From a virus (Duplodnaviria > Heunggongvirae > Uroviricota > Caudoviricetes), in IMG/VR virus record IMGVR_UViG_3300033489_000001, positions 62,023 to 126,022 of that record: 64,000 nucleotides of DNA, one strand, 5' to 3'. The notes beneath the pieces are model-generated. The model saw nothing but the letters and a program-made list of their open reading frames with translations, did no database searches and was not told the DNA's origin. The position numbers were made by a program, and so were the translations under genes. Shown one piece after another: positions 964 through 38,111 of the stretch. Position 1 is the first letter of the stretch. Every line of letters begins with the position of its first letter.

Positions 964-3116
964 TAGACCTCTTCCCTTGCTCTCTCCAAATAAGCTAGAG
1001 CTAAATCCCTAACTTCACTGGCGAAGCCTAATGATTGAATGTTTGTCTCAACTGTGGCCGTTGACGAAAACACCGCATCTTCTTGAAGACGCTCAAGAAA
1101 ATGATCAATGCTACGCTTTTCATTCTCAACCCGTTCCTTCTTTTCAAGATCAAATACGTCTTCAGACGGGGCTACAGTCAAAGACAACGTCTTTACATTA
1201 ATCCCCGAAGTATTGAACTCTAATAAAGCTACTTGTGGCACGCGATCAAGATTATCATGTGTAAGAGCCCCACGTGAAACTGCTCCCTGATTTACAAAAT
1301 ACTTTCCCCCGATATTGACTATACCTTGATCTTTATGCCAATGGCCAAAACAGTTGTGAACAAGCAAGCCCCCAGCCACATACTCCCCCGTAGAAGTGCG
1401 AAAGTTATGAACGTTCCCAGTATACCTAAATCTAGAAACCTTCTTAACCCTCGCATAATATAAATCCCTTTCAAAAAATGCTGCAACTTTGGTCTTACCT
1501 CTATCCGAAGGAGAAATTCCCATACACTTAGATAATAAATTAGCGTCATCTCCGTAGAAAGAGATAACATTAACAGGTAAACAAACAGAGGTAGAGTGCC
1601 TGTCCTTATACCTATTAAAATGAGTAACTCGTGCTGGACGAACTGTAAAATATGGGTGCAGACCTATAGACAAGGCTAAGAAAAAAATCTGAAAGGAAAG
1701 AGTTTTAGAAACAGTGGCACCCACAATTTCAGCTCTTAGTCGAGCTTTAGTTTTCACTGGTCGAACGTAGCCATCGCCCAATAACCAACCGATAAGGAAT
1801 TCAAAACGATCCATGGCTGATCTTTGCCAAATCCATGAGGATAAACTTTTCTTAGCTGCATATCTCCCCCCATGTTGTAAAAAGAATTCAGAAATTGCTT
1901 GCCCGTACCCACATACTTGAACAGAATTACTTACCTTAGAAATGTGGATATGTGTGTCGATATCAAAATACTCTTTCACAAGTGAGCTGACATCCTTATG
2001 CAGACTCGTCTCGTTAGAATTAAAACTCCACCCTACCCCAGCTATAGGCTCTTTTTGACGATTTTTTATTAGGTGCCCCTCAGCCACATAATAACCTAAA
2101 AGCCTGGCCAAACCGGGTGACGATGGTGCCCCAGAAGGAATTTTTGGAACAGGTATAGCTATATAATCACCTATTTCAATTTTACCCGCCTCTACCCAAG
2201 ATGAAGATACACTAGGCGCTTTAATGCAAACTGAACAAGGATAAGAAGTCATCACCTTATCAGGATGACACCTTCTAGTATTCCTGGAAGAAAGGCTACA
2301 ATGTAACCCTTTTGCAACCCAATAAGGATGCTCCACAGTAACCCCTGTTAAAGAGGGAACACCTTCCACTTCAACCCTAACTAAATCTGTATTCACGAAT
2401 CTAACTGGATGCACCTCTTCAACAATTGTTGAACCATCCCTACCCAACATTGAAAAATCTTTTTTAACACCTTCGATAGGAAGGGGACGGTATAAACTAT
2501 CCAAAACAGGGGTGCCAGAAGGGAAACAAAATACGTCCGGGCCATTCTCCGTAACAAGATCCCCATAACGAAACACAGGCTCCTTAAAGAAACCTTCAAC
2601 TTTAGAAGGCGGCGCTTCTGTTGCTAAAGAATGTACAACCGCTACAAGAAAATTGTCTCCCGGTTGCTTTTGAATAGCCAAGAGGTCCTCAAGAGATCTG
2701 GTTAAACTATAAGGAACCCCCACAACTCTAACCTGTAAAGCACCCTCTCGAAAAACCTCTTCTCTCAAATGCTGAAAAACCTTAGTAGCGTATAACACCC
2801 CAAGTGGTTGTTGATCAATACTATCAAGATTGTTGTAAAAAAGGTCGTGGTTACCTTCAACACAATAAACAGGACAACTGTACTCGCTATGAATCTTCGT
2901 TGTTCTGATCACTAAAGAATGGCTGTTTCTGCTCGCTGTTTTAATGTGGAAGTAATCCCCACCATCTAGGACAGCCGCAACCTTGTGCGCTTTCGCTATC
3001 TGTCCAATCTCTTCTAAACTTGACCAAATTTCAGCTAGGTAATCCCCCTTCCATGAAGCAGGATTCTTATCGGATGCATGGACGTCTGTACGATAAATGA
3101 AAGCTATCCTAGACAT
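963..3116 (-). CDS. sbcD: Mre11/SbcD-type metallophosphoesterase nuclease, interrupted by an intein
   Basis: DVH, GGDYFH, GNHD, H and GHWH phosphoesterase motifs; adjacent to a Rad50-like ATPase. Confidence 0.9.
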   Translation of the reverse strand: MSRIAFIYRTDVHASDKNPASWKGDYLAEIWSSLEEIGQIAKAHKVAAVLDGGDYFHIKTASRNSHSLVIRTTKIHSEYSCPVYCVEGNHDLFYNNLDSIDQQPLGVLYATKVFQHLREEVFREGALQVRVVGVPYSLTRSLEDLLAIQKQPGDNFLVAVVHSLATEAPPSKVEGFFKEPVFRYGDLVTENGPDVFCFPSGTPVLDSLYRPLPIEGVKKDFSMLGRDGSTIVEEVHPVRFVNTDLVRVEVEGVPSLTGVTVEHPYWVAKGLHCSLSSRNTRRCHPDKVMTSYPCSVCIKAPSVSSSWVEAGKIEIGDYIAIPVPKIPSGAPSSPGLARLLGYYVAEGHLIKNRQKEPIAGVGWSFNSNETSLHKDVSSLVKEYFDIDTHIHISKVSNSVQVCGYGQAISEFFLQHGGRYAAKKSLSSWIWQRSAMDRFEFLIGWLLGDGYVRPVKTKARLRAEIVGATVSKTLSFQIFFLALSIGLHPYFTVRPARVTHFNRYKDRHSTSVCLPVNVISFYGDDANLLSKCMGISPSDRGKTKVAAFFERDLYYARVKKVSRFRYTGNVHNFRTSTGEYVAGGLLVHNCFGHWHKDQGIVNIGGKYFVNQGAVSRGALTHDNLDRVPQVALLEFNTSGINVKTLSLTVAPSEDVFDLEKKERVENEKRSIDHFLERLQEDAVFSSTATVETNIQSLGFASEVRDLALAYLERAREEV
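1353..2528 (-). mobile_element. Intein (392 aa) with LAGLIDADG homing endonuclease in sbcD
   Basis: Starts at Cys197 (CFPSGTPVL), ends GGLLVHN followed by a Cys+1 extein (CFGHWH); LAGLIDADG-like motifs LLGYYVAEGH and IGWLLGDGYV. Confidence 0.92.
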
Positions 3117-8373: not shown

Positions 8374-9024
8374 TCACTTGCTCAAAGCCTCATAAAATTG
8401 TGCCATATAAGGCAAACCACGGAGCCATGCACAAATCCCTTCCGGCCCTGACCATTCTGGCAACCGATGATCCCCCCGCCAGCGAAGCATCCCTAAACCA
8501 GTCTCGTAATTCATAGAAAAAGTGGCTTTTTGTAGAAAACCTTCAGGCAAAAGCTTTTTCATTCTTCGAACAAGCTCGTAATCTTTTGTTTCTGCATAAC
8601 GTCTCGAAAGATTATTTAATACATCAAGAACCGCAGGAAGCACATCCCCGTCTTGAAAGTCATCGGGGGTTATTTGAGATCCCCCGAGCTTATGCATGGT
8701 GGAACAACTATTTCTGACCGTTGCTACCTTGTAGGTGTCCAGCTCTTGCCATATATATCTCGGTATGGTGATATCAGTAACGATCATTATCTGACGTAAA
8801 AACTTTCGATGCACAGATCCAGCTTTTATCAACTTGCAGCAAAGCTCTAAATCTTTGGGACCTATCTTCACATTCTCTATGGAGTGAAGATCAAAGCTAT
8901 CATTGTCTACCACGTACCTAACGAACTCAAAGGTGCTATCACTCTTGTTCCAAGAGTTCATAGGATTTCTCATCCCACGCAAAGCTGCTTTGAAGCCGTA
9001 TACTTCAGTTTTTTCGATTTTCAT
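8374..9024 (-). CDS. ThyX-like (flavin-dependent thymidylate synthase-related) protein
   Basis: HRKFLRQI, RYIWQELDTYK and STMH segments; canonical RHRxxS motif not seen; probable start MKIEK at 9024. Confidence 0.55.
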   Translation of the reverse strand: MKIEKTEVYGFKAALRGMRNPMNSWNKSDSTFEFVRYVVDNDSFDLHSIENVKIGPKDLELCCKLIKAGSVHRKFLRQIMIVTDITIPRYIWQELDTYKVATVRNSCSTMHKLGGSQITPDDFQDGDVLPAVLDVLNNLSRRYAETKDYELVRRMKKLLPEGFLQKATFSMNYETGLGMLRWRGDHRLPEWSGPEGICAWLRGLPYMAQFYEALSK

Positions 9025-20828: not shown

Positions 20829-22391
20829 TTACCAACGTTTCGATTTCTGAGATACCTTCTTCTTAGAAAACTTTCCAGGTAGCGAAGCAATATCTCCCAC
20901 CGAAGGAGCAGCTTCAAGATACAAAGGGCTACCGTTAAAATCCACTACACTTGAAATCGTAATAGAGGCAGGGACTACTACGTTTGGAAGATCAAACGTA
21001 GTAGGAGGAGGGGAGAAAGGAACCACTACCTCCGTATCTCCATCCTCAGCTTCAAAGGAAGCCGCTATGTTGCTCTGAGCTTCATTAGAAAGAATCACAC
21101 CTGCGGTTTTGAGGTCACGATTTGCCGCCACACTATAGGTGCCACCCATGCCTCTAGTCGCCCCTCTGCTCATACTGGTCAAATACGAGGCATTACTTAC
21201 GTAAGCCGCCGAACTACCCATGCACGCACCTATATTATTAGCCACCGCACCAAGATCAACAAGACCTCTTGCTCCAATATGAGCTGAGACGGACTGCATT
21301 AATCCCGCTGCCTGAGCAAAGTTGCCTTGTTTGGCCTGTTCTTCAGCTTCAATTTGAGCCCGAACAATTTGAGCCAAGCCTACAATACGATCCAAAGCGG
21401 CGTCCGGAACTGTGTCCTGTTCCCCTTCTTTGACGAATTGAACTTTGACCTTCGCTTCTAATATCTTCCGTTCTTTACGAAGATTAGCATCCAAAATGTC
21501 ATAACCGAATTTCACATCGAATACATTAACGGCCCTGGGGAGAGCGCTCTTTTGGCTTTGAAGCTTAATGGCCAAAACCAAATTACGAGTTTCCTCTGAC
21601 AAAATGTCTGGTATCCTAATCGAAACCTGACCTAAGTCATCTTCATCAACGTCCACATCGGATACCACCTGAGTAATTTGGTGCCCAGCAAGCGGAGCTA
21701 TCTCTAGCACCAAGCCCGTAGCATAGGTGCTTAGAAGACCTCCTAACTCCTTCCCAAAAACTGAAAGAGCATCATCAGGGTTCTGCACAAAAGAGTAGTT
21801 TCCGTTACCGGACTTAGCTAAATTCAACAAGAAGTCCTGTTGGGCATCAAAGCCATACCCAAAAGCACTTACGCTGGCCCTCCCAATATTAGGTTTTACC
21901 AATGCAAGGATGTCTTTCGGTGTCTTTGCAGGCCCTTCATTCGCGGCTCCATCCGTAAAGAGAATCACCCGCAAAATCACCTCTATAGCTAAGTCCATGC
22001 TATTGACAATCCCAAACCCCTGCAAAAGAGCATCGGCTATGTTTGTAGAGGTACAGGCATGTAAGTCACCAACCTTACGTTTAAGGTCCTCTTTTGCCTC
22101 TTTGGTGCATCTTACCGGCTTTGCTACAACCTCAGCTACATTCGTAAATGTAACAAGACCGCAATAGTCATTAGCCGAAAGATGATCGATCAATTTAATC
22201 AACGACCGCTTCGCATACGCAAGCTTCTCCCCAGCCATCGAACCAGAAATATCCAAAAGAGGAATTATGCACAGCGGGGGCCTCTTATCCTCCACTGCCA
22301 CCGCCGGGGCTTGCAAATTCAGAACTAAATGCGCTTCGGTTTCTTGATTGAACTGGACTTTATTAAATGTGAGACTAGCATCAATTTTCAT
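20829..22391 (-). CDS. vWA domain protein (YfbK/inter-alpha-trypsin-inhibitor-like)
   Basis: MIDAS DISGS...T...TDG; FGYGFD; GNGNYSFV. Confidence 0.85.
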   Translation of the reverse strand: MKIDASLTFNKVQFNQETEAHLVLNLQAPAVAVEDKRPPLCIIPLLDISGSMAGEKLAYAKRSLIKLIDHLSANDYCGLVTFTNVAEVVAKPVRCTKEAKEDLKRKVGDLHACTSTNIADALLQGFGIVNSMDLAIEVILRVILFTDGAANEGPAKTPKDILALVKPNIGRASVSAFGYGFDAQQDFLLNLAKSGNGNYSFVQNPDDALSVFGKELGGLLSTYATGLVLEIAPLAGHQITQVVSDVDVDEDDLGQVSIRIPDILSEETRNLVLAIKLQSQKSALPRAVNVFDVKFGYDILDANLRKERKILEAKVKVQFVKEGEQDTVPDAALDRIVGLAQIVRAQIEAEEQAKQGNFAQAAGLMQSVSAHIGARGLVDLGAVANNIGACMGSSAAYVSNASYLTSMSRGATRGMGGTYSVAANRDLKTAGVILSNEAQSNIAASFEAEDGDTEVVVPFSPPPTTFDLPNVVVPASITISSVVDFNGSPLYLEAAPSVGDIASLPGKFSKKKVSQKSKRW

Positions 22392-22632
22392 AGCTTTGGT
22401 CCTTTCCCGTAGCCGTCTGGCCCAGCAAATTCAATGGTGCAGGTTGGACAACCTCAAACCAAAAAACCGCTAAGCATTTCGCAGAACGTCCACCGCTTCC
22501 CCAAACCCGAAGGCGCGGTCAGCGGCACGAGAGATCCAAAACCCAGGTTATTGAACGAAGGTGCGATCTCACGCTTCCATATCTACACCGGTACAAAAAG
22601 ATTCTTCCCTCAACCGGTGTAATTAAAAAGCA

Positions 22633-23112
22633 ATGAAAACCTCAAAAGCTAAGAGAGCCGCTCTAAAAAGATATTACTACTCGGAAACTGGGAAAGCTTT
22701 TAGAGAACAATACAAAGCCTCTGGAAAAAGAAAAGAGGTTAAGGATAAATACAAACAATCCAAAAAAGGTAGAGCTGCCATAAAGCGATACCGTTCTTCT
22801 GAGAAGCACAAAGACTACCGAAAAAAATGGAACAAAACTCCAACGGGTAAAGCCGTAAGGGCCAAAGCCTCCAAAAAAATACATGACCGAAAGCGTGCCA
22901 TCATTAGTGAAGAAAAACTAAAACGAGGGTGCGTTGATTGCGGATACAAAGGGCACCCCGCCGCCTTAGATTTTGATCATGTCAAAGGTAAGAAGTTGTT
23001 TAGTATGTCCCAAGCTGTAAGTCGCTCAATCAAAGCGATACGTGCAGAAATGGAAAAATGTGTGGTACGTTGTTCTAACTGTCATAGAATTAAGACTTTT
23101 GAAGATCGCTAA
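22633..23112 (+). CDS. HNH endonuclease (free-standing, probably homing)
   Basis: Basic N-terminal region then CVDCG...LDFDH...CSNCH. Confidence 0.8.
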   Translation: MKTSKAKRAALKRYYYSETGKAFREQYKASGKRKEVKDKYKQSKKGRAAIKRYRSSEKHKDYRKKWNKTPTGKAVRAKASKKIHDRKRAIISEEKLKRGCVDCGYKGHPAALDFDHVKGKKLFSMSQAVSRSIKAIRAEMEKCVVRCSNCHRIKTFEDR

Positions 23113-23213
23113 AAGACAAGGTAAGAAGGATCAAAAATTAAGAAAGCCACATAAGAACTCACCAATAGTGTAATTAAGCTTTTTAGACTCTGAATGCCTA
23201 CAAGGAGAAAACC

Positions 23214-25607
23214 ATGGAAATTGTTTGTTCCTACAAAATCAGTTCTGATCTTTATTTAGTCCGGCACCGCATAGATCAAAAAGAAACTCCTAAAAAAATT
23301 GATGTCCCTACCAACCATTTCTTGATAATCGATTGCAGCGGAAGCATGTCCTATGACCTCCCTAAAATCCGCGAACAACTCAAGAAGAAGCTGCCTAAAC
23401 TTCTCAAGGAGAAGGACACTATTACCATCATTTGGTTCAGCGGCCGGGGCCAATTTGGCACCTTATTGGAAGCTGAGCCCGTAGCTACCCTTGCAGACCT
23501 TAAAGATGTTGAACGAGCCATTGACAGATGGTTAAAACCAATAGGACTTACTGGTTTTCAAGAACCAATTGAAGAAGCTGGAAAGGTTCTTGACAGGGTG
23601 TCTAAAAAGCATCCAAAAAATGTTGGTAGTCTCCTATTCCTAAGCGATGGTTGTGATAATCAAGGCACTAGATCAAAGATATTAGATACCGTAAGTTTAG
23701 TGTCTCGTAAATTTTCCTCCTCCACATTCGTAGAGTATGGCTACTACGCCGATAGGCCCCTCCTTACCGCGATGGCTGAAAAATCCGGGGGAACGCTCAT
23801 CTTCGCTGAAGACTTTGACCGCTACGCTCCTACTTTTGAATCAGCCATTCAAAAGAAGCTATCTGGGGCTCCCCGCATTGAAGTCAAGCTTACGGAAACT
23901 CCTGTAGAAGGATTCGCCTTTGCTCGCTCTGACGGGGATCTTTTAACCTTTGCTGTTACTGAAAACACAATTCAAGTTCCGGCGGACTTACCCTGTATTT
24001 CCTACCTCACAAAATCCCCCAAAGATGAAGTCACAGATTTAGGTATGGGATCTCTTTTACAAACCCTGTCCCTAGGCATAATAGCAAAAGAGCACTCCGA
24101 TCCTAAATCCAAAGTAAGTGCAGATGAACAACCCATAAGGGACGCCTATGCAGCCTTGTCCCTCTATGCCATCCGGATGAAATCTAACATTGTCTTCCCT
24201 CTACTAAAGGCTTTGGGAGATATAAAGTTCATTGATCAATTCTCTACCTGTTTCGGAAAACAAGCCTATTCCGCTTTCCAAGAAGTGACTAAAGAGGCAG
24301 CCTTTGACGAGAAAAAACAGTGGGAAAAAGGATGGGATCCAAACAAAGTCCCGGCGGAAGATGCCTTTACCATTTTGGAATTAATGCAGCTCTTAGCCTC
24401 AGACGAAAACAATCGGGTACTACTTGATCACTCGTCCTTCAAGTACAACCGAATAGGGCGAGGACGCATAGATGCAAGCGACCAAATCACCGCCGACGAG
24501 CAAAAAGAGATACAAGAGTTAACAGTCAAGTTAGCTACTGAAAAGAAAGCCTCTAAAGCCAAAGAAATTTCTGATCGAATCGCTGAGATCACAAACAAGA
24601 AGACTCTAAAGTTTGAAGCTGATCCCGCTCCAGACGGGTATCCTATATCATCGCTCACTTTCAACGAGGACCGGCCCAATGTTTCATTTCTTGTTCGTAA
24701 GGCTGGGACGGTTGATCTTTCCGCTTGGATACCGGAAACACTCCAAGGAAAACTTCCGGCAAAATTCCCAACCTTTGTTTATCGAAACTATGCCGTAATC
24801 AAAGACGGCCTAGTCAACATTGATGTATTGCCAGTCAGGATTAAGGAAAACACTTACAAAGAAATCCTGTCAAAAACCTCCACAGAGGTCATAAACAGTG
24901 CAGTTGCTGATTCTCAGGGCTTCGTTGATACCGTTTTAAATCTTCGCTTACTTCCCGTGATCAATCGCAAAATGATCAAGGACGTGAGTGCCAAAACCTT
25001 CTTCCAAATCAAGTATACCCTGATTCAAGCGCAAGCCGAACAAAAGGTCTTTAACAGTTATTCCAAAGATCTTTTGCCTGATAAGAAATCGAAAAGCTTC
25101 TCCACTCAATACGGGGATGAAGCTACCGAATGGCTTAAAGAGCTAGGATTTACAGATTACTCCGGCTTTTCTCCTAAGAGCATTCAAGCTGAAGCAGTTG
25201 ACTTCTACATGGGGAAAGAGCTGAAAGTAAACCTAAAAGGACTTTCATCCCTGCCTAGTCTTAATGAACTTCGTAAACAAATTGCCAAGGGTAAGACCAA
25301 TACTGCCGGTAGCCTTATGGTTCCAACCTTCAACTTGGTTGAAGGATTCCTAACTAATGACATTTACAAGAATGCCGCTGATAAGGACGCCGTTCTAAAA
25401 GCCTGGTTAGAGGGTCAAACCAAGGCGGCTAAGACAAAGACCCGCGCTCTGATCTATCAGATTGCTCAAACAGTCTTTGTTTTAACAGTGGGTCAAATCT
25501 GGTTTAAAGAGTTTGCCACGCTCGATGACAACTCCTTGGATATAGATGTGGCCGGAACTACTATTCCTTGCAAAGCCGAGCTACGTGAGATCAAAATAAA
25601 GATCTAA
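23214..25607 (+). CDS. Large vWA domain protein
   Basis: MIDAS DCSGS...T...SDG in the N-terminal ~200 aa; C-terminal ~550 aa unrecognised. Confidence 0.8.
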   Translation: MEIVCSYKISSDLYLVRHRIDQKETPKKIDVPTNHFLIIDCSGSMSYDLPKIREQLKKKLPKLLKEKDTITIIWFSGRGQFGTLLEAEPVATLADLKDVERAIDRWLKPIGLTGFQEPIEEAGKVLDRVSKKHPKNVGSLLFLSDGCDNQGTRSKILDTVSLVSRKFSSSTFVEYGYYADRPLLTAMAEKSGGTLIFAEDFDRYAPTFESAIQKKLSGAPRIEVKLTETPVEGFAFARSDGDLLTFAVTENTIQVPADLPCISYLTKSPKDEVTDLGMGSLLQTLSLGIIAKEHSDPKSKVSADEQPIRDAYAALSLYAIRMKSNIVFPLLKALGDIKFIDQFSTCFGKQAYSAFQEVTKEAAFDEKKQWEKGWDPNKVPAEDAFTILELMQLLASDENNRVLLDHSSFKYNRIGRGRIDASDQITADEQKEIQELTVKLATEKKASKAKEISDRIAEITNKKTLKFEADPAPDGYPISSLTFNEDRPNVSFLVRKAGTVDLSAWIPETLQGKLPAKFPTFVYRNYAVIKDGLVNIDVLPVRIKENTYKEILSKTSTEVINSAVADSQGFVDTVLNLRLLPVINRKMIKDVSAKTFFQIKYTLIQAQAEQKVFNSYSKDLLPDKKSKSFSTQYGDEATEWLKELGFTDYSGFSPKSIQAEAVDFYMGKELKVNLKGLSSLPSLNELRKQIAKGKTNTAGSLMVPTFNLVEGFLTNDIYKNAADKDAVLKAWLEGQTKAAKTKTRALIYQIAQTVFVLTVGQIWFKEFATLDDNSLDIDVAGTTIPCKAELREIKIKI

Positions 25608-25622
25608 CCGGAACTAGAAATT

Positions 25623-25662
25623 AAAAAACCGGGCGAAGTATTGTCAGTCCAACTTCGTCCGG
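25623..25662 (-). terminator. Rho-independent terminator closing the tRNA-mimic RNA array
   Basis: 11-bp stem (25629-25639/25652-25662) followed on the minus strand by TTTTTT. Confidence 0.75.
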
Positions 25663-25699
25663 TCCCCTTACAGCAGCGGCTTTCTGCAATGGTTTCCCT

Positions 25700-25749
25700 C
25701 GGTGCTCTTGGCGGGAATCGAACCCACTAAGCTCCATCTGCTCAAGAAC
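25700..25749 (-). ncRNA. 50-nt mini-tRNA (acceptor stem + T arm only), copy 1
   Basis: GTTCTTG-15 nt-GTGGG TTCGATT CCCGC-CAAGAGC-ACCG. Confidence 0.65.
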
Positions 25750-25752
25750 ATA

Positions 25753-25906
25753 TTCTGCAACGTATCCGAGTACTAAACCTGTTTTAGCGTTTTGCTTGTA
25801 CCAAAAACAAGTGCCTTAACCACTAGGCTACTTCTCCCTTACGGGGGAAAGTTGGATTCGAACCAACGATTGCATGTAAGATTTAGCTGGTGGATACAAT
25901 GCAGAA
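25753..25906 (-). ncRNA. Circularly permuted tRNA-like RNA (YrlA/Y-RNA-like) A, with a Gln(UUG) anticodon arm
   Basis: Order: closing stem, T arm GTTGG TTCGAAT CCAAC, acceptor capped by C-GTAA-G, D arm GCC TAGTGGTTAA GGC, anticodon arm CTTGT TTTTGGT ACAAG, closing stem. Confidence 0.8.
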
Positions 25907-25912
25907 ATTTTT

Positions 25913-26036
25913 GAGGGCGTTCGAGGCGAAAAAGCAGGTTTTTTGCGACGGGATTCGGACCCGTTACAATCTGTTTATAGGACAGATGCTCTACCTATTG
26001 AGCTACGCTTGTATGCTTTCTCTGTTGAGCGTCCTC
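25913..26036 (-). ncRNA. Pseudo-tRNA-Ile(UAU) with a broken, extended acceptor stem
   Basis: D arm GCTC/GAGC, anticodon arm TCTGT CCTATAA ACAGA, T arm ACGGG TCCGAAT CCCGT; only 3 acceptor bp, then outer helices GAGAAAGCA/TGCTTTTTC and GAGGACG/CGCCCTC. Confidence 0.65.
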
Positions 26037-26085
26037 GGTGCCGGATCGTGGAGTCGAACCACGCTAAGCAACCTATTTGTCCGAC
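26036..26085 (-). ncRNA. 50-nt mini-tRNA (acceptor stem + T arm only), copy 2
   Basis: GTCGGAC-15 nt-CGTGG TTCGACT CCACG-ATCCGGC-ACCG. Confidence 0.65.
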
Positions 26086-26136
26086 AGTCCCACTCATTAA
26101 GAAGGTGGGCTTACTTTGATTGATGAACCTCAGGCT

Positions 26137-26164
26137 AATATACCAATCCAGAATATATTGTCAA
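26137..26164 (-). promoter_or_regulatory. Sigma70-type promoter inside the RNA array
   Basis: TTGACA-N16-TATATT with a TG extended -10. Confidence 0.6.
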
Positions 26165-26175
26165 CCAAAAATCAT

Positions 26176-26289
26176 TGCACCCGAGTAGATAAACCTGGTT
26201 TTGCCTTACCATTAGGCTATTTTTCCAGTTTATGGAGGAAAAAGTTGGAATTGAACCAACATGCATGTAAGGTTTATCTGGTGGGTGCA
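26176..26289 (-). ncRNA. Circularly permuted tRNA-like RNA (YrlA/Y-RNA-like) B
   Basis: TGCACCC/GGGTGCA and ATAAACCT/AGGTTTAT closing stems; T arm GTTGG TTCAATT CCAAC; capped acceptor TTTTTCC/GGAAAAA; D arm GCC TAATGGTAA GGC; no anticodon arm. Confidence 0.8.
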
Positions 26290-30749: not shown

Positions 30750-32666
30750 TCAAGCTGCCCAGGCCGGTTTTGAAAGAAGGGCTGTATCCAAAATTATATC
30801 CACTAAGGACTTTCTAGGAACAGCAGCAGCTCTGGCCGCCTTACCAACGGGTGTGGCGGAAATTAAAGTACGGATAGTCCGAGGAATTGCATAAGCATCT
30901 GCAAAGATCTTCTCATCGATCATGAAGCACGGGACACCTAACTCAGTCGCCGTACCGGTGACTGCCGAGTAAGGAGATTGCCGCACTTTCAAGAAACCAA
31001 AAGCAATCGGCTCTAATTTAGAATCCCGTACAGCAGCCGCAAAAGGTCCAGCTTCCTCATCGCCTACGAAGATGAAAAGGACATCCTCATCAGCCTTAGG
31101 TTTGAAGTTTTGAAGCGCCCGTACCCCAGCACCGTAATCAGTGCCACCTCCAGACGTAATGCCTCGAAAAGCATTTTCAACTCCAGCAGCAGAATTGTGC
31201 TTAATCTCAACCACACGACCAGAAGTATTGAATACCGAAACATGGATCTGATCTTTTGGAAATCCCTGTAAGAACTTGGCCAAATAGACTTTGGCTTGCT
31301 CAATGGCATCATGCATCGAACCTGAGATATCCACCATGAAGTAGATGCGGAGACCTTTGACAACTTCTTCTACGGCCTTTTTAACCGCATTGTCCGCCGC
31401 TTCTACAAGCTTTTCTTGTGTCGCCTTAGAACGAACACGGGTTGCGATATTAGCCGCCCTGGTGTCTTCAGCGGTCTTGATAGCCCTCTCCCACCGCTCA
31501 CGGATTTCTTGAACATCAAGAAGCCCAAGTTCCTCAAGGGTAGGAGTTGAAATGATCAAGTCCTTATCAGAAAGCGCCTTCGCTTCGATAGCTGCCGCCA
31601 TAATCGCTCTTGTCAGTCCCATGTCTTTAGGCAAGAGGCCCACAATGCGCTTAAAGCTTGGCTTGGTCTTGATGATAGTCTTACAGATTTTTGCTTCGTC
31701 AAATCCTTCCCAAGATTCCGCCGCCGCAACAGCCTGACCAATAGTAAGAGTCCTTCTGCCGTCTTTCGCTTGCGTTTGCTTCCAACGAAGAACCTCAAAG
31801 AATTTTGTGGAAGTAGGCTTGTATCCAACCGTACGAGCTAGGTCCATCACTGTCCGTCGAAACCCCGCTTTGACTAAACCTTCTAGCATCTTTGGGTTTT
31901 CTTCCCGATAACGAAGCCACTTTTCAACAACCTTAGGCCAACGACCTAGAAACGGATGTTGAGCTGATTTTCCAAAGCCCAGCTCTTGGTTGATTTGCAC
32001 AACAGCCGGTAGAAGCAGGACATCTCGAACACGGAATAGAAGCTTTGGGTTGAAATCTCTGCCTACTTCTACCTTAGCCTCCTTATCCGCCTTACCCTTT
32101 TTCTTGGTTTTTGTACCTTGAGGGCGAGCCACTTTACTGGTCAATAGCAGCATCGCTTCCCCAACATCACGAAAGTCTTCATCGTAGAAAGCCAGTTTTC
32201 CACCGTCAAGAACAGGATCACCTTTACGGCATTGTACAAGCATGAAAGCCGCTAGGATGACTTTCAAATCCCGGTGCTCTTGTGCATAAGCATAAGAAGC
32301 CCACTTAGCTGAGAACTCATTATCAAGCCTCCAAACCTCAGCAACTTGCCGGTAAATCCACGACACAACCTCTGGGTACAATCCCGCCGGTTGATAACGG
32401 CCAATGACCCGGTTTCCGTCTTTTACACGACCGTCGTCCTTGAGCTTACCAAGCTTGACCTTAGTATCCTTGCGCCCAATTCTACGTAATTCGTAGACGA
32501 CTTTATCGCCTTCTTCTACTACGTGAGTTACTGGCAACCATTTAGTGCCCACAACCGAAGTAGTATCAGGAATCGTAATTCCAGCTCGGTTATGGTAACT
32601 ATGATCGACATAGCCAAGAACCGTCTGGAGAATTCGTTCTGCTGGTCCTAGGTTTTCATTTGGCAT
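30750..32666 (-). CDS. Divergent Ro60/TROVE-like protein with C-terminal vWA domain
   Basis: Helical N-terminal region with DLARTVGYKP (cf. Ro60 DLLRLxHxKP); vWA DISGS, GGGTDY, FVGDEE; co-located with YrlA-like RNAs; probable start MPNEN at 32666. Confidence 0.6.
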   Translation of the reverse strand: MPNENLGPAERILQTVLGYVDHSYHNRAGITIPDTTSVVGTKWLPVTHVVEEGDKVVYELRRIGRKDTKVKLGKLKDDGRVKDGNRVIGRYQPAGLYPEVVSWIYRQVAEVWRLDNEFSAKWASYAYAQEHRDLKVILAAFMLVQCRKGDPVLDGGKLAFYDEDFRDVGEAMLLLTSKVARPQGTKTKKKGKADKEAKVEVGRDFNPKLLFRVRDVLLLPAVVQINQELGFGKSAQHPFLGRWPKVVEKWLRYREENPKMLEGLVKAGFRRTVMDLARTVGYKPTSTKFFEVLRWKQTQAKDGRRTLTIGQAVAAAESWEGFDEAKICKTIIKTKPSFKRIVGLLPKDMGLTRAIMAAAIEAKALSDKDLIISTPTLEELGLLDVQEIRERWERAIKTAEDTRAANIATRVRSKATQEKLVEAADNAVKKAVEEVVKGLRIYFMVDISGSMHDAIEQAKVYLAKFLQGFPKDQIHVSVFNTSGRVVEIKHNSAAGVENAFRGITSGGGTDYGAGVRALQNFKPKADEDVLFIFVGDEEAGPFAAAVRDSKLEPIAFGFLKVRQSPYSAVTGTATELGVPCFMIDEKIFADAYAIPRTIRTLISATPVGKAARAAAVPRKSLVDIILDTALLSKPAWAA

Positions 32667-32814
32667 GGTATTTAATCCGATCTGGCTCGCCCTTGGCACA
32701 AACTTATAAGGCTGGCAAGCTAGCCTTGAAAAAACCCCCATTATTACACCGAATAACGGTCTTGTAAAGTTACTTCCTAGCAGATTACTTGAAAAAAAAA
32801 CAGCTTTTGTGACT

Positions 32815-33317: not shown

Positions 33318-34325
33318 ATGGTGCCCGTAGTTGATAGAAATCAGATCCCCTTAATGCCGTGCTCCGAAAAGAGAGCTAGGAAAATGGTTGCATCCAAAAA
33401 GGCCACTCCTTTTTGGAAAAGAGGGATTTTTTGTATCCGTCTTAATGTAGAACCGTCAGCTTGTAACTTACAAAAAATAGTTGTTGGAATAGATCCAGGC
33501 TCTAAGAAGGAAGGATTCACTGTAAAATCTAAAGCTCACACTCTTTTAAACATTCAAGCCGATGCTATAACTTGGGTGAAGGATCATGTTGAAACTAGAA
33601 GGATTATGAGAAGAGGGCGGAGGTTTAGAAAGACTCCTTGTAGACAAAATAGAATGAATCGATCTAGGGGAAGTCTGCCTCCTTCAACTAAGTCTAGATG
33701 GCAGTGGAAGTTAAGGATTGTAAACTGGCTTAGGAAGATGTTTCCTGTAGTTAGCTTTGTAGTTGAGGATATAAAGGTAATAACCAAGAAATTTCAAAAG
33801 AAGTGGAACAGAAGTTTTTCTCCTTTAGAAGTTGGAAAAGCTTGGTTCTATGAGAAGTTAAGAGCTTTAGGGGAATTGACGATTAAGCAAGGGTGGGACA
33901 CTAAACTTTTACGAGACAACTTAAGCCTCAAGAAGACCTCTAAGAAAATGTCTGAAGTTTTTAGTGCTCATTGCGTTGATTCTTGGGTTTTAGCAAATGA
34001 GATAATTGGGGGCCATTTAAAGCCTGAGAACACAAGACTTACTTGTGTTATTCCTATTCAACTATTTAGAAGACAGTTGCATAGAATGGTTCCTTCTAAA
34101 GGAGGAAAGAGATCTCTTTATGGTGGGACTAGAAGTCTTGGGTTGAAACGCGGATCTTTAGTAAAGCATCCTAAGCTAGGGCTCACTTATGTTGGTGGAA
34201 GTTCTAATAATCGGTTGAGTCTTCATTCCTTGTTGAATGGATCTAGATTGACTAAGAGTGCGAAGTTAGAAGATTGCAGGTTTTTATCTTATAGTGGGGT
34301 AAGGACTTATAATGTTCTTACTTGA
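33318..34325 (+). CDS. isrB: IsrB (IscB-family RNA-guided nickase lacking HNH)
   Basis: PLMP motif, GIDPGSK (RuvC-I), Arg-rich bridge helix, VVEDI (RuvC-II), HCVDS (RuvC-III); 335 aa, no HNH domain. Confidence 0.85.
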   Translation: MVPVVDRNQIPLMPCSEKRARKMVASKKATPFWKRGIFCIRLNVEPSACNLQKIVVGIDPGSKKEGFTVKSKAHTLLNIQADAITWVKDHVETRRIMRRGRRFRKTPCRQNRMNRSRGSLPPSTKSRWQWKLRIVNWLRKMFPVVSFVVEDIKVITKKFQKKWNRSFSPLEVGKAWFYEKLRALGELTIKQGWDTKLLRDNLSLKKTSKKMSEVFSAHCVDSWVLANEIIGGHLKPENTRLTCVIPIQLFRRQLHRMVPSKGGKRSLYGGTRSLGLKRGSLVKHPKLGLTYVGGSSNNRLSLHSLLNGSRLTKSAKLEDCRFLSYSGVRTYNVLT

Positions 34326-34337
34326 GGAGAGTTCTCG

Positions 34338-35609
34338 ATGGATGCTCAAAAAGTAGCCGCCCGATTTGCAGCGGAACAAACAAAAGCCGAACTTCTCAAA
34401 AACACAATTGAGGAATTTGGCAAAGCTTTGCGTTATCTTAGCCGTTTTTCCTCAGTCCTTTCCGCCGCCTTGCACGAAGACCGTACCACTTTAGAACCGG
34501 ACGAAGTCTGGCAAGACCAGTTCGTACGCTATTGGAAAGATTGGGACCCGATTAGAAAACGCTTAGAGGATCTGGCCTCTGATTTAGGCGACCTAAGCTT
34601 ATATGACTTGGAAGCTCATATCAAAAAAGCCACTGCTGAAACTTCCGGAACCCCTAGCTACAACCCAAACTCTCCTTACCAAATTGGTTACGCCACGAAT
34701 GATGGAACGGGGCACACCACTTTTAGAAAGACGCCTCAAGGCCGCCAGCACATTGCTTACAAAGTTGACCGATTGAAAACTTGGGGCGAAGCCATGGTTC
34801 GATGGGCTAAAGAAGGCCAAACTCTCGCCCAAAAGTTAACTAAAATAAAAACACGCCCTAATAAACGTTTGGCAAATCTGCTAAAAGCTTCTGAGACACA
34901 GTTCCCCCTACAACGTCTGGCTATGGTCCGCATGATAAAGGGTACAAGCATGGTACCTTGGGCCAAACGGGAATTAGAATTGGCTGGCCTTTTCGATGAA
35001 GCCTCCGATTATGATGGAGCATTAGGCTCACAAATTTACGAATTAGTGAAAACTTTCTCAGAACAAGGACATAGCGGGGGATCCGCCGGTATAGTTTCCG
35101 ATGTACTCGATAAGTTGCTCAACTACGAGCCCCTCACCCCACTAGGAAACCCCAGCGAAACCGGGGATTATATAAACGTTCAAATACCCAGCCCCACAGG
35201 CGCACCTACTTACCAAAGCACCAGAGATTTTTCAGTCTTTAGTGACGATTCAGGTAAGACTTGGTACAAGCTTGTAAGTGATCAAGACGAGGTGCTGCGA
35301 AACACATCAATGATTTCTAATCGCGTGCCTCTTGAAGAATATGAAGCTCAAAAGTTTAGAACCGCTCGCGTAAGTTTCAAGTATGAACCAAAAGAAACAA
35401 AACAGTCTAAAGTAAAACGTCTCATGGCCTTTATTACAAAAAGTACGGGCGTGGGGCGTAATGTTTCTGAGGATATTGCGGACGCCATCATTCGTAATCG
35501 GAATCTCTCTGCGTTGGCCGTTCAAAAGGGATGGCCAATGTCCGATGATACAATAGAAGGCCCTTTGGGGAACCTAAGTGTAGACGAAGTTCGCAACGCT
35601 CTAAACTAA
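34338..35609 (+). CDS. Hypothetical multi-module protein
   Basis: 423 aa; N-terminal KVAARF motif; internal FSEQGHSGGSA...PLTPL module. Confidence 0.7.
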   Translation: MDAQKVAARFAAEQTKAELLKNTIEEFGKALRYLSRFSSVLSAALHEDRTTLEPDEVWQDQFVRYWKDWDPIRKRLEDLASDLGDLSLYDLEAHIKKATAETSGTPSYNPNSPYQIGYATNDGTGHTTFRKTPQGRQHIAYKVDRLKTWGEAMVRWAKEGQTLAQKLTKIKTRPNKRLANLLKASETQFPLQRLAMVRMIKGTSMVPWAKRELELAGLFDEASDYDGALGSQIYELVKTFSEQGHSGGSAGIVSDVLDKLLNYEPLTPLGNPSETGDYINVQIPSPTGAPTYQSTRDFSVFSDDSGKTWYKLVSDQDEVLRNTSMISNRVPLEEYEAQKFRTARVSFKYEPKETKQSKVKRLMAFITKSTGVGRNVSEDIADAIIRNRNLSALAVQKGWPMSDDTIEGPLGNLSVDEVRNALN

Positions 35610-36620: not shown

Positions 36621-38111
36621 ATGAAAAATAATGCCGCTCAAGTTGTACAACGTTTCTTAGAAGCTAAGGTGCTTATCGCTTCAAACGCCGAAAAAGAAGT
36701 TGAAAGGCTGCTCAAACAAGTGCTGCCAAGAACCCCCTGGGCTGGGAAGGCAATGGCTGTCGGCGGCTACATTAGAGACCAATACATGGGCCTAGAAGCC
36801 AAGGATCTTGACATTGTCGTAACCATCCCTGGCGGCTCCGAACATCTAACTAAACACCTCCACCGAATATTCCCGGAGAGCACTACCAACCCTCATCAAA
36901 TGGGAGCCTACCCCATCTGGCAAATTACCTTCACAGATGACACAGAGTATGATCAGCAAACATTCCACACGAAAGGGGCCATAATTGAGTTTGCTGATAC
37001 CATGAAAGAAAGCTTCCCAGACGACACCTCACGGCAACGTTCCGTGCAGCCGGGCACTCTCGAGGAGGATATAGAAAGACGTGATTTTACCGTTAACATG
37101 CTTCTCAAGGATCTAACTAGTGGAGAAATAGTTGATCTTACAGGCGTTAGTAAATCCGATATTGAAAATGGCATCTTGAGAGGTCACCCTCGGGTATCTC
37201 TTGATAAGATTTTCAAAGAGGATCCCTTACGTATGGCTAGGCTCATACGCTTCCAATGCAAGTATGGTTGGATCATTCCTCTCTCAGTTCTAAAAACCGT
37301 CCGGCGAAATGCGACACGTATCAAGATAGTTTCTGCTGAACGTATCATGGGAGAACTGACAAAGGTAATGAAGCTAGGCAAGTTAGATCAAGCCATAAAA
37401 TTAATGAAAGCAACCGGCCTATTACCTCACATCTTACCCGAAGTTCAGGCCATGATTGGCGTGAAGCAATCCGAACGAGAACACGCCGAAGGAGATGTCT
37501 ACAAGCACACTCTTGAAGTGCTCCGGAATGCACCCTCCACTATTGAAGGGCAACTGGCGGCCCTACTCCACGATGTTGGAAAACCTTCTACGCAAGAATT
37601 AATAGGGGATGCCCTACACTTCTACGGACACGAAGACGTAGGGGCTGAAATAACCGAAGCCATTTTACGCCGTCTAAAGTTTGATGTGACAACCATCAAA
37701 AAAGTTGTGACTGCTGTCCGCAATCACATGCGTCCCCACTTCCTCTCAGAATCTAAAGACAAAGCTATCCGAAAATTTATTCGTGACCTTGGAGACGAAA
37801 TAGAAGTCACGCTGGACTTAGCGGAAGCGGATGAAAAAGGAAGTTTCCCAAACAAACATAACATCCCGGTGCTTAGGGAAAGAGTCAAAAACATCCGAGA
37901 ATCCCCCCTGCCCGTTTCCCGGAAACCGATCCTAAATGGAATTGAATTGATGGGTATCCTTGGAATTACCACACAAGACAAACAAAAGCTGCCCTTGATA
38001 GGCTCAGCTGGCAAGTTCCTATTGGACCTGGCAGATGACTATGCCGAACGGGGACTCGAATTAACCAAAGAAGAAGCCGCCCACGCTGTTAGAGAACGAT
38101 ATAAAGCATAA
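36621..38111 (+). CDS. cca: CCA-adding tRNA nucleotidyltransferase with HD domain
   Basis: VGGYIRD..DLDI, EDIERRDFTVN, DPLRMAR, ERI, LLHDVGKP. Confidence 0.9.
   Translation: MKNNAAQVVQRFLEAKVLIASNAEKEVERLLKQVLPRTPWAGKAMAVGGYIRDQYMGLEAKDLDIVVTIPGGSEHLTKHLHRIFPESTTNPHQMGAYPIWQITFTDDTEYDQQTFHTKGAIIEFADTMKESFPDDTSRQRSVQPGTLEEDIERRDFTVNMLLKDLTSGEIVDLTGVSKSDIENGILRGHPRVSLDKIFKEDPLRMARLIRFQCKYGWIIPLSVLKTVRRNATRIKIVSAERIMGELTKVMKLGKLDQAIKLMKATGLLPHILPEVQAMIGVKQSEREHAEGDVYKHTLEVLRNAPSTIEGQLAALLHDVGKPSTQELIGDALHFYGHEDVGAEITEAILRRLKFDVTTIKKVVTAVRNHMRPHFLSESKDKAIRKFIRDLGDEIEVTLDLAEADEKGSFPNKHNIPVLRERVKNIRESPLPVSRKPILNGIELMGILGITTQDKQKLPLIGSAGKFLLDLADDYAERGLELTKEEAAHAVRERYKA

Follow-up and report, generated by a model that had tools for sequence, protein, structure and literature searches.

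The DNA analysed here (the window, 64,000 nucleotides) belongs to a phage genome that is complete at 411,618 bp and has terminal repeats. On its minus strand lies an operon that encodes, in order, a 663-aa Ro60-like protein, a JAB gene, a ubiquitin-like ORF, an inserted LAGLIDADG endonuclease and a ThiF-type E1, followed by an array of small RNAs and a terminator. The array closes the operon, running from 26424 to 25700, and comprises an oversized tRNA-like RNA ending in CCA, a permuted tRNA mimic resembling YrlA (YrlA-like A), a spacer, a short tRNA-like element that is the subject of this study (copy 2), a pseudo-tRNA(UAU), a further YrlA-like RNA (YrlA-like B) and a second short element (copy 1). 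The features to which we refer are as follows.

36621..38111, plus strand: CCA-adding-enzyme-like gene (PolyA_pol head, RNA-binding and HD domains)
30750..32741, minus strand: Ro60-like gene (TROVE ring and vWA) at the head of the operon, called by fold comparison
26176..26289, minus strand: YrlA-like permuted tRNA mimic A, the upstream neighbour (T arm, TTTTTCC-T-CCA, 6-nt loop, GGAAAAA, D arm in the closing helix)
26137..26164, minus strand: promoter-like TTGACA-16-TATATT with TG before the -10 box (11/12 matches, a consensus match only), about 50 nt upstream of copy 2
26087..26112, minus strand: hairpin immediately 5' of copy 2, one of seven copies of a genome-wide repeat
26079..26085, minus strand: copy 2, acceptor 5' strand GTCGGAC, pairing with 26040-26046
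26064..26078, minus strand: copy 2, 15-nt linker AAATAGGTTGCTTAG, containing AGGU, a candidate mimic of D-loop G18-G19
26047..26063, minus strand: copy 2, T arm CGTGG / TTCGACT / CCACG, with a canonical T loop and five Watson-Crick stem pairs
26037..26046, minus strand: copy 2, acceptor 3' strand ATCCGGC (26046-40) and A73-C74-C75 (A-C-C-G at 26039-36)
25913..26036, minus strand: pseudo-tRNA(UAU) mounted on an outer helix, whose 5' strand GAGG begins right after C75 of copy 2
25753..25906, minus strand: YrlA-like permuted tRNA mimic B, between the pseudo-tRNA and copy 1
25701..25749, minus strand: copy 1, GTTCTTG / 15 nt / GTGGG TTCGATT CCCGC / CAAGAGC / ACC, with 7/7 acceptor pairs
25620..25668, minus strand: intrinsic terminator closing the array (long G+C-rich stem, then UUUUUU)

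Sequence searches of the 663-aa protein against Pfam and PDB sequences returned a vWA domain only and did not recognise Ro60. When its AlphaFold (AF2) model (pLDDT 74) was compared with known structures, the 13 best PDB fold matches were all Ro60/TROVE proteins (E 5e-8 to 9e-6 over about 570 columns, with TM scores of only 0.24-0.44), including Xenopus and human Ro60, Deinococcus Rsr and the Ro60 of Thermus phage phiLo; on the strength of this modelled fold the protein is called Ro60-like. Among GenBank phages it has one relative, in uncultured Virus Rctr197k. A phage Ro60 has been reported to bind two phage Y-like RNAs (PMC12135203). Two more vWA-domain proteins, of 520 aa (minus strand) and 797 aa (plus strand), flank the array within 20829-25607, and an RRXRR protein and a protein with a Tad3 (Thoeris inhibitor) domain are encoded at 33318-35609 (plus strand), near the CCA-adding-type gene.

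Copy 2 consists of 49 bases of the minus strand (26085-26037), followed by a G at 26036 and then by AGG. Six of its seven acceptor positions pair (G-C, U.G, C-G, G-C, G-C, A-U), and the seventh is a C.A mismatch (C7.A66) at the junction with the T arm. The first-pass annotation had proposed a 50-nt mini-tRNA at this site; its parts and their spacing are confirmed on the minus strand, but the acceptor has six pairs and a C.A rather than seven pairs. Set against a canonical tRNA, the element has the 5-bp T stem, a loop of the TTCRANY form, an acceptor of 6 bp plus the C.A, and A73-C-C, but the gap between acceptor and T arm is only 15 nt and contains neither a D arm nor an anticodon arm, and therefore copy 2 is not a decoding tRNA. 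ARAGORN found no tRNAs in the window, Rfam gave no tRNA match (RF00005) at 26036-26085, and no Rfam family was found across the array beyond a partial tRNA match with its core at 25945-26008 (a joint Rfam match at 25710-31 was an artefact). Pfam gave no match for the plus-strand ORF that covers the site (25890-26123). Both the T arm and the ACC-bearing 3' strand are clearly tRNA-derived. Copy 2 is a real tRNA top half, with an acceptor stem stacked on a canonical T arm, a short D-loop-like linker and an encoded A73-C-C.

The partial tRNA match belongs to the next RNA of the array. This pseudo-tRNA matches the Rfam tRNA model at 48 bits without an acceptor stem (core 25945-26008) and is degenerate, with C33 and an acceptor of only 3 bp. 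In the fold of a 136-nt stretch containing it (-38.9 kcal/mol, z -4.18), GAGG (26036-33) pairs with CCUC (25916-13). The closing helix of this RNA thus begins with GAGG, and ACC|GAGG marks a genuine boundary between modules at copy 2, as had been suggested from the letters. The outer helix begins 0-3 nt past N73(CC) in the window and in the related loci L001, L008, L010, L012, L014 and L018. In this family of pseudo-tRNAs the D, anticodon and T arms are kept, the acceptor is replaced by the long outer helix, and AGCATACAAGCG always precedes; the anticodon loop varies (UAU with C33 in the window, UAU in L001, GAU-like in L012). The pseudo-tRNA and the mini (as we call the short form) or oversized element before it move as one block, which in L010 and L008 stands at another locus, behind an ORF. 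A pairing of the CCGAG tail with the conserved CTCGG of the YrlA-like RNAs was dropped, because both motifs are invariant, so that covariation cannot show it, and because the tail pairs inside the next RNA.

On its other side, copy 2 directly follows a 26-nt hairpin (AAGCCCRCC-loop-GYGGGAC with a conserved CTTAWTG loop) that recurs on the minus strand of the genome. The other sites are at genome positions 276547, 246834, 186689, 186517, 154770 and 139289, and the seven copies, all on the minus strand, show a compensatory change from CCCAC/GTGGG to CCCGC/GCGGG. These additional copies account for a spike in depth. The repeat may act as a leader or a terminator, or may itself be a small RNA; GAGGTTCATCAA and promoter-like boxes often precede it, and a similar hairpin follows the YrlA-like RNA in L016 and L013. 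Outside the window, 7 nt after another copy of the repeat, lies a third permuted YrlA-type element (genome about 276420-276515, minus strand) with the order T arm, GAGGCAC-A-CC, small hairpin loop, GTGCCTC, D arm. A more distant 5' strand for copy 2, TCTGGAT at 26153-26159 (6/7 pairs), was rejected as the main form because it would enclose both the promoter-like site and the independent seven-copy repeat hairpin.

Copy 1, counted with its final G, spans 25749-25700 and follows the plan 7/15/5-7-5/7/ACCG, as does copy 2, so that the proposed identity of dimensions holds for the two copies in the window, but it does not extend to relatives, where the linker measures about 9-15, 55 or 93-105 nt. 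As had also been noted, GCACCGAGG ends each copy. Common descent and the helix of the neighbouring RNA explain this shared tail better than a cleavage motif would. The tail of copy 1, which has no helix-bearing neighbour directly 3', is probably identical to that of copy 2 through common descent. The tail also trails normal tRNA-Leu genes and thus is not diagnostic, and exact-pattern scans of viral contigs with the 3' end, the plan of copy 1 or GTCGGACAAA retrieved ordinary tRNA genes of unrelated phages.

The pairing of the 5' strand of copy 2 is, taken alone, not rare, and this is the weak point of the element. We used 497 distinct real tRNAs from related loci as a control for chance acceptor pairing: a pseudo-acceptor lying 9-15 nt ahead of the T arm occurs in 64 of them with 6/7 pairs and in 10 with 7/7, giving an empirical chance rate of about 0.1-0.13 for the pairing seen in copy 2. 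Its folding energy does not stand out (z -0.74 for 50 nt, 0.04 for 58 nt), and minimum-free-energy folding of longer stretches around it yielded no tRNA-like form. A structure model built from relatives only (R2) scores copy 2 at 21.1 bits (E 0.01), level with the 3' halves of ordinary tRNAs; R2 lost three of the 12 pairs to gap columns, which makes it a weak test. Given this chance rate, the flat folding z and the low R2 score, copy 2 rests on its context and not on its own statistics. Copy 1 is the best match of R2 in the genome (30.6 bits), and with the mini structure model run over the whole 411-kb genome, only copies 1 and 2 exceed the level of tRNA 3' halves. The genome also encodes 36 ordinary tRNAs and one tmRNA (genome 219546-219933, ARAGORN), about 130 kb from the array and on the opposite strand.

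A 97%-identical sediment contig spans copy 2 and differs there at a single linker position (26067 A>C), and one contig with a difference in the linker only is uninformative about the stems. Contigs from four DNA runs matched only as the source sample and short near-identical pieces, and no GenBank phage matched the array in blastn.

The context is provided by related phages. We recruited related loci through the Ro60-like protein, obtaining 3 viral and 80 metagenome loci, and found seven distinct minis in five phage genomes: two in the window, one in L008 (the same phage as L001), one in L010, two in L012 (one also in L011) and one in L014/L017. The minis score 31-55 bits with the mini model; the checked matches at or below about 31 bits are ordinary tRNA 3' halves, except the L008 mini (31.3 bits). 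Their acceptors are as follows.

Window copy 2: GTCGGA / TCCGGC
Window copy 1 and L012:8919: GTTCTTG / CAAGAGC
L010: GGTAAG / CTTACC
L008: GGTGAG / CTTACC
L011/L012: AGCGGGA / TCCCGCT
L014: GCCGG / CCGGC, with a T stem of 7 bp

The longer T stem of L014 means that its stack remains at 12 bp. In an alignment of the seven minis (A4, made by a model), 97% of the cells in stem positions are paired and both sides change in 10 of the 12 pairs, a result to be read with the facts that the members were found partly via pairing and that the alignment was fitted to the structure. None of 500 shuffles reached the observed pairing, and slid controls were 48-58% paired. These data bear out the earlier proposal that selection acts on shape. 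Copy 1 and the mini at L012:8919-8967, whose acceptors are identical, have 23 of 24 stem bases in common and only about half of the linker, and this better preservation of the stems again indicates selection on them. The linkers, of about 9-15 nt, contain GG followed by U or A in 7/7 minis; this GG could mimic D-loop G18-G19, a likeness of limited statistical strength. Position -1 varies among the minis (U, U, C, A, A, A, U). The L008 mini encodes CCA, and one of the L012 minis (L012a) and that of L014 are without an encoded CC. Minis are confined to a subclade whose Ro60-like proteins share about 75% identity or more with that of the window, plus a second module in the L001 phage. The mini shared by L011 (8234-8283) and L012 (2451-2500) has a perfect 7-bp acceptor, a 15-nt linker, the plan 7/15/5-7-5/7 and a full encoded ACCA; it sits in an ordinary tRNA cluster, 13 nt past a normal tRNA and just before an ORF, with no Y-like RNA adjoining.

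The loci can also be compared by the element that stands just 5' of the helix-mounted pseudo-tRNA, which we recognised by AGCATACAAGCG. At this one position the element occurs in three sizes.

Full oversized form (L018, L041, L060, L062, L066, L074, L076): linker 93-105 nt
Intermediate form (L001): linker 55 nt
Mini form (window, L010, L012, L014): linker about 9-15 nt

The full form has a 7-bp acceptor, a D-like hairpin, an anticodon-like arm and a long variable region, for a total of 140-150 nt. The occurrence of this size series at one position points to the mini as a lineage-specific reduction in which the acceptor/T-arm half was kept. Copy 2 thus descends from a larger tRNA-like RNA of the array, with its D, anticodon and variable parts lost. 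In L001 the acceptor has A-U at pair 2:71 and U-A at 7:66, where the window has U.G and C.A. In L012, GTCGGACAAA is retained right after the YrlA-like RNA, at the place that the acceptor 5' strand occupies in L018 and L001, and its presence at the ancestral position argues that GTCGGAC of copy 2 was inherited and is not a chance complement. By analogy with known substrates, the reduced mini would keep what RNase P and CCA-adding enzymes recognise, and the series of 140, 90 and 49 nt amounts to a natural deletion experiment on the indispensable part of the tRNA-like RNA in the array. Between the YrlA-like RNA and the mini, L012 carries a 96-aa ORF (8618-8908), of which L020 holds a relative at 43% identity. 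The ORF opens with ATGTCGGACAAA, in which the 11-mer known from the window as the 5' strand of copy 2 is used again. L025 (15888-15950) holds another intermediate, with an acceptor, a D-like hairpin (GAGAC-TGGA-GTCTC), a T arm, no anticodon arm and a 22-nt linker.

We class the mini with tRNA-like processing modules and with the tRNA mimics found at Ro60 loci. It resembles RNase P hairpin substrates and synthetic tRNA minihelices in its acceptor-on-T-stem stack, T loop and 3' R-C-C(A) (PMC11143913), but laboratory minihelices have continuous stems, whereas the phage mini is gene-encoded, carries a 9-15-nt GG linker between its stems and is conserved in phage genomes. Plant mitochondrial t-elements, tRNA punctuation and 3' modules of the mascRNA type likewise place a tRNA-like fold at transcript borders, where it is proposed to guide RNase P/RNase Z (PMC1920247); the phage mini differs from t-elements in belonging to a bacterial system, in flanking non-coding Y-like RNAs and in being strictly a top half, and its cleavage is a prediction. 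Like the YrlA-type Y RNAs bound by Ro60/Rsr, it is part of an array downstream of a Ro60-like gene, is tRNA-derived and has a canonical T arm, but copy 2 lacks the Ro-binding stem, the D arm and the permuted order, ends at the acceptor as a tRNA does, and has no match to Rfam YrlA (RF02553) even at E up to 10. With the tRNA-like domain of tmRNA it shares an acceptor stem, a T arm, an unpaired D-loop analogue and the absence of an anticodon arm; unlike tmRNA, copy 2 has C-G at pair 3:70 instead of G3.U70, and it has no tag reading frame and no pseudoknots. In the literature we found no published description of gene-encoded tRNA top halves in phages. The mini represents a further RNA type at phage Ro60/Y-RNA-like loci, whose RNA content remains poorly catalogued.

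The reading that we favour, tentatively, is that copy 2 is quite possibly a cis-acting processing bookend that separates chained small non-coding RNAs, and we infer every enzymatic step of it. If the promoter-like site is used, one transcript would contain the leader, copy 2, the pseudo-tRNA, YrlA-like B, copy 1 and the terminator, so that the two minis would bracket two larger RNAs. Host RNase P would cut at the 5' end of copy 2, removing a hairpin leader of about 45 nt; enzymes of tRNA 3'-end maturation would work at A73-C-C or immediately past it, freeing the 5' end of the next RNA where its closing helix starts; and a CCA-adding enzyme, possibly that of the phage itself, could complete the 3' end of copy 2. 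Copy 1 would act likewise where the array finishes, with YrlA-like B on one side and the terminator on the other. The 49-nt product may be just a stable by-product, or it may be functional in itself. Hairpins made of an acceptor and a T arm are cleaved by bacterial RNase P at the canonical site, and the P15 loop of the enzyme pairs with R73-C74-C75 (PMC11143913). Copy 2 has the elements of a minimal substrate (about 12 stacked pairs, a T loop and R73-C74-C75), with 6+5 pairs and a mismatch at the junction, and its A-C-C fits the R-C-C motif of the RCCA contact with bacterial RNase P RNA (PMC11143913). Its position, judged from predicted features, is consistent with this role: the 3' end abuts the helix of its neighbour and the 5' end follows the leader hairpin and the promoter-like site. 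There are precedents in Mycobacterium smegmatis YrlA, which has a 7-bp acceptor, is cut by RNase P and gains CCA in vivo, with one precursor for YrlA and YrlB (PMC4201824), and in the plant mitochondrial t-elements, whose tRNA-like folds signal in cis to RNase P and RNase Z (PMC1920247). The phage's own CCA-adding-type gene also counts for the bookend. Against it, a mini is absent behind the YrlA-like RNA in the related arrays L013 and L016, and the junction between the oversized tRNA-like RNA and YrlA-like A in the window needs none. The minis of L010 and L008 overlap the last codons and the stop of an ORF, so that cutting at the 5' end would cost the ORF its stop codon. In some bacteria C74-C75 disfavours RNase Z, which makes the proposed 3' cut less certain. 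The variable base at -1 and the weak statistics of copy 2 taken alone also count against the bookend. If the bookend reading is true, phages separate chained non-coding RNAs by stripped-down tRNA mimics, following the logic of mitochondrial tRNA punctuation in a natural minimal form hitherto mainly a laboratory substrate.

Two of the alternatives would have copy 2 do something other than mark a border. It may be a free, trans-acting small RNA, a CCA-ended top half that works via its acceptor end or elbow and for which processing is incidental; such an RNA could be a decoy or stand-in for enzymes that bind tRNA ends or for host toxins, or an extra partner of the Ro60-like protein. The ACCA mini of L011/L012, which lies among ordinary tRNAs and away from any Y-like RNA, the encoded CCA of the L008 mini and the GG-bearing linker of all seven minis are in keeping with this, as is the ability of Ro60 proteins to bind several small RNAs, together with the T arm of M. 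smegmatis YrlB (PMC4201824, PMC12135203). We nevertheless consider it unlikely, given that the minis have no common identity elements (pairs 1-3 and N73 vary, and there is no G3.U70), no Ro-binding stem and no GNCGAA-type motif, that those of L012a and L014 have no encoded CC, and that five of the seven stand directly against the helix of a neighbour, which points to a positional role. A broader version, in which giant phages encode a dedicated class of CCA-ended top-half RNAs acting in trans, with processing secondary, either as decoys against host defence enzymes that attack or modify acceptor ends or as cofactors that link a Ro60-like particle to tRNA-end enzymes, seems to us rather less likely again. 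The mini might also never be released, forming instead the 5' domain of a two-module RNA with the pseudo-tRNA, a stacked rod with two tRNA-like elbows that would serve as a scaffold for a Ro60-like particle. In six phage loci the outer helix invariably starts 0-3 nt past N73(CC), and the mini or oversized form moves with the pseudo-tRNA as a block, as in L010 and L008 at the other locus behind an ORF. Both would follow naturally from such an RNA, yet copy 1 and the L011 mini lack this neighbour and an encoded ACC or ACCA resembles a tRNA 3' end and not a hinge, which makes this arrangement very unlikely.

A further possibility is that copy 2 has no function and is the 3' part of an oversized tRNA-like gene that lost its middle, a repeated promoter/hairpin cassette having come to lie upstream, its remaining 6/7 acceptor pairing being fortuitous or inherited. 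The reduction series itself would be expected of such a relic, and so would the C.A mismatch, the degenerate neighbouring pseudo-tRNA (C33 and a 3-bp acceptor), a 6/7 pairing with a chance rate of about 0.1 and the low score in the leave-out model; the distal TCTGGAT at 26153-26159 likewise pairs at 6/7 positions. Decay does not readily account for perfect T loops and compensatory stem changes in seven minis from five phages, for stems that are kept better than linkers, or for the retention of GTCGGACAAA in L012 at the ancestral position of the 5' strand, and the distal strand would enclose the independent seven-copy repeat element. A relic is therefore, in our judgement, improbable, and the bookend remains the reading that we prefer.

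Further tRNA-like RNAs are present elsewhere in one of these genomes. The 398-kb relative (L008) contains a second cluster of oversized and permuted tRNA-like RNAs at 1900-2300 (minus strand), far from the Ro60-like gene, in which the RNAs share CTTACATGCA just before the T arm.
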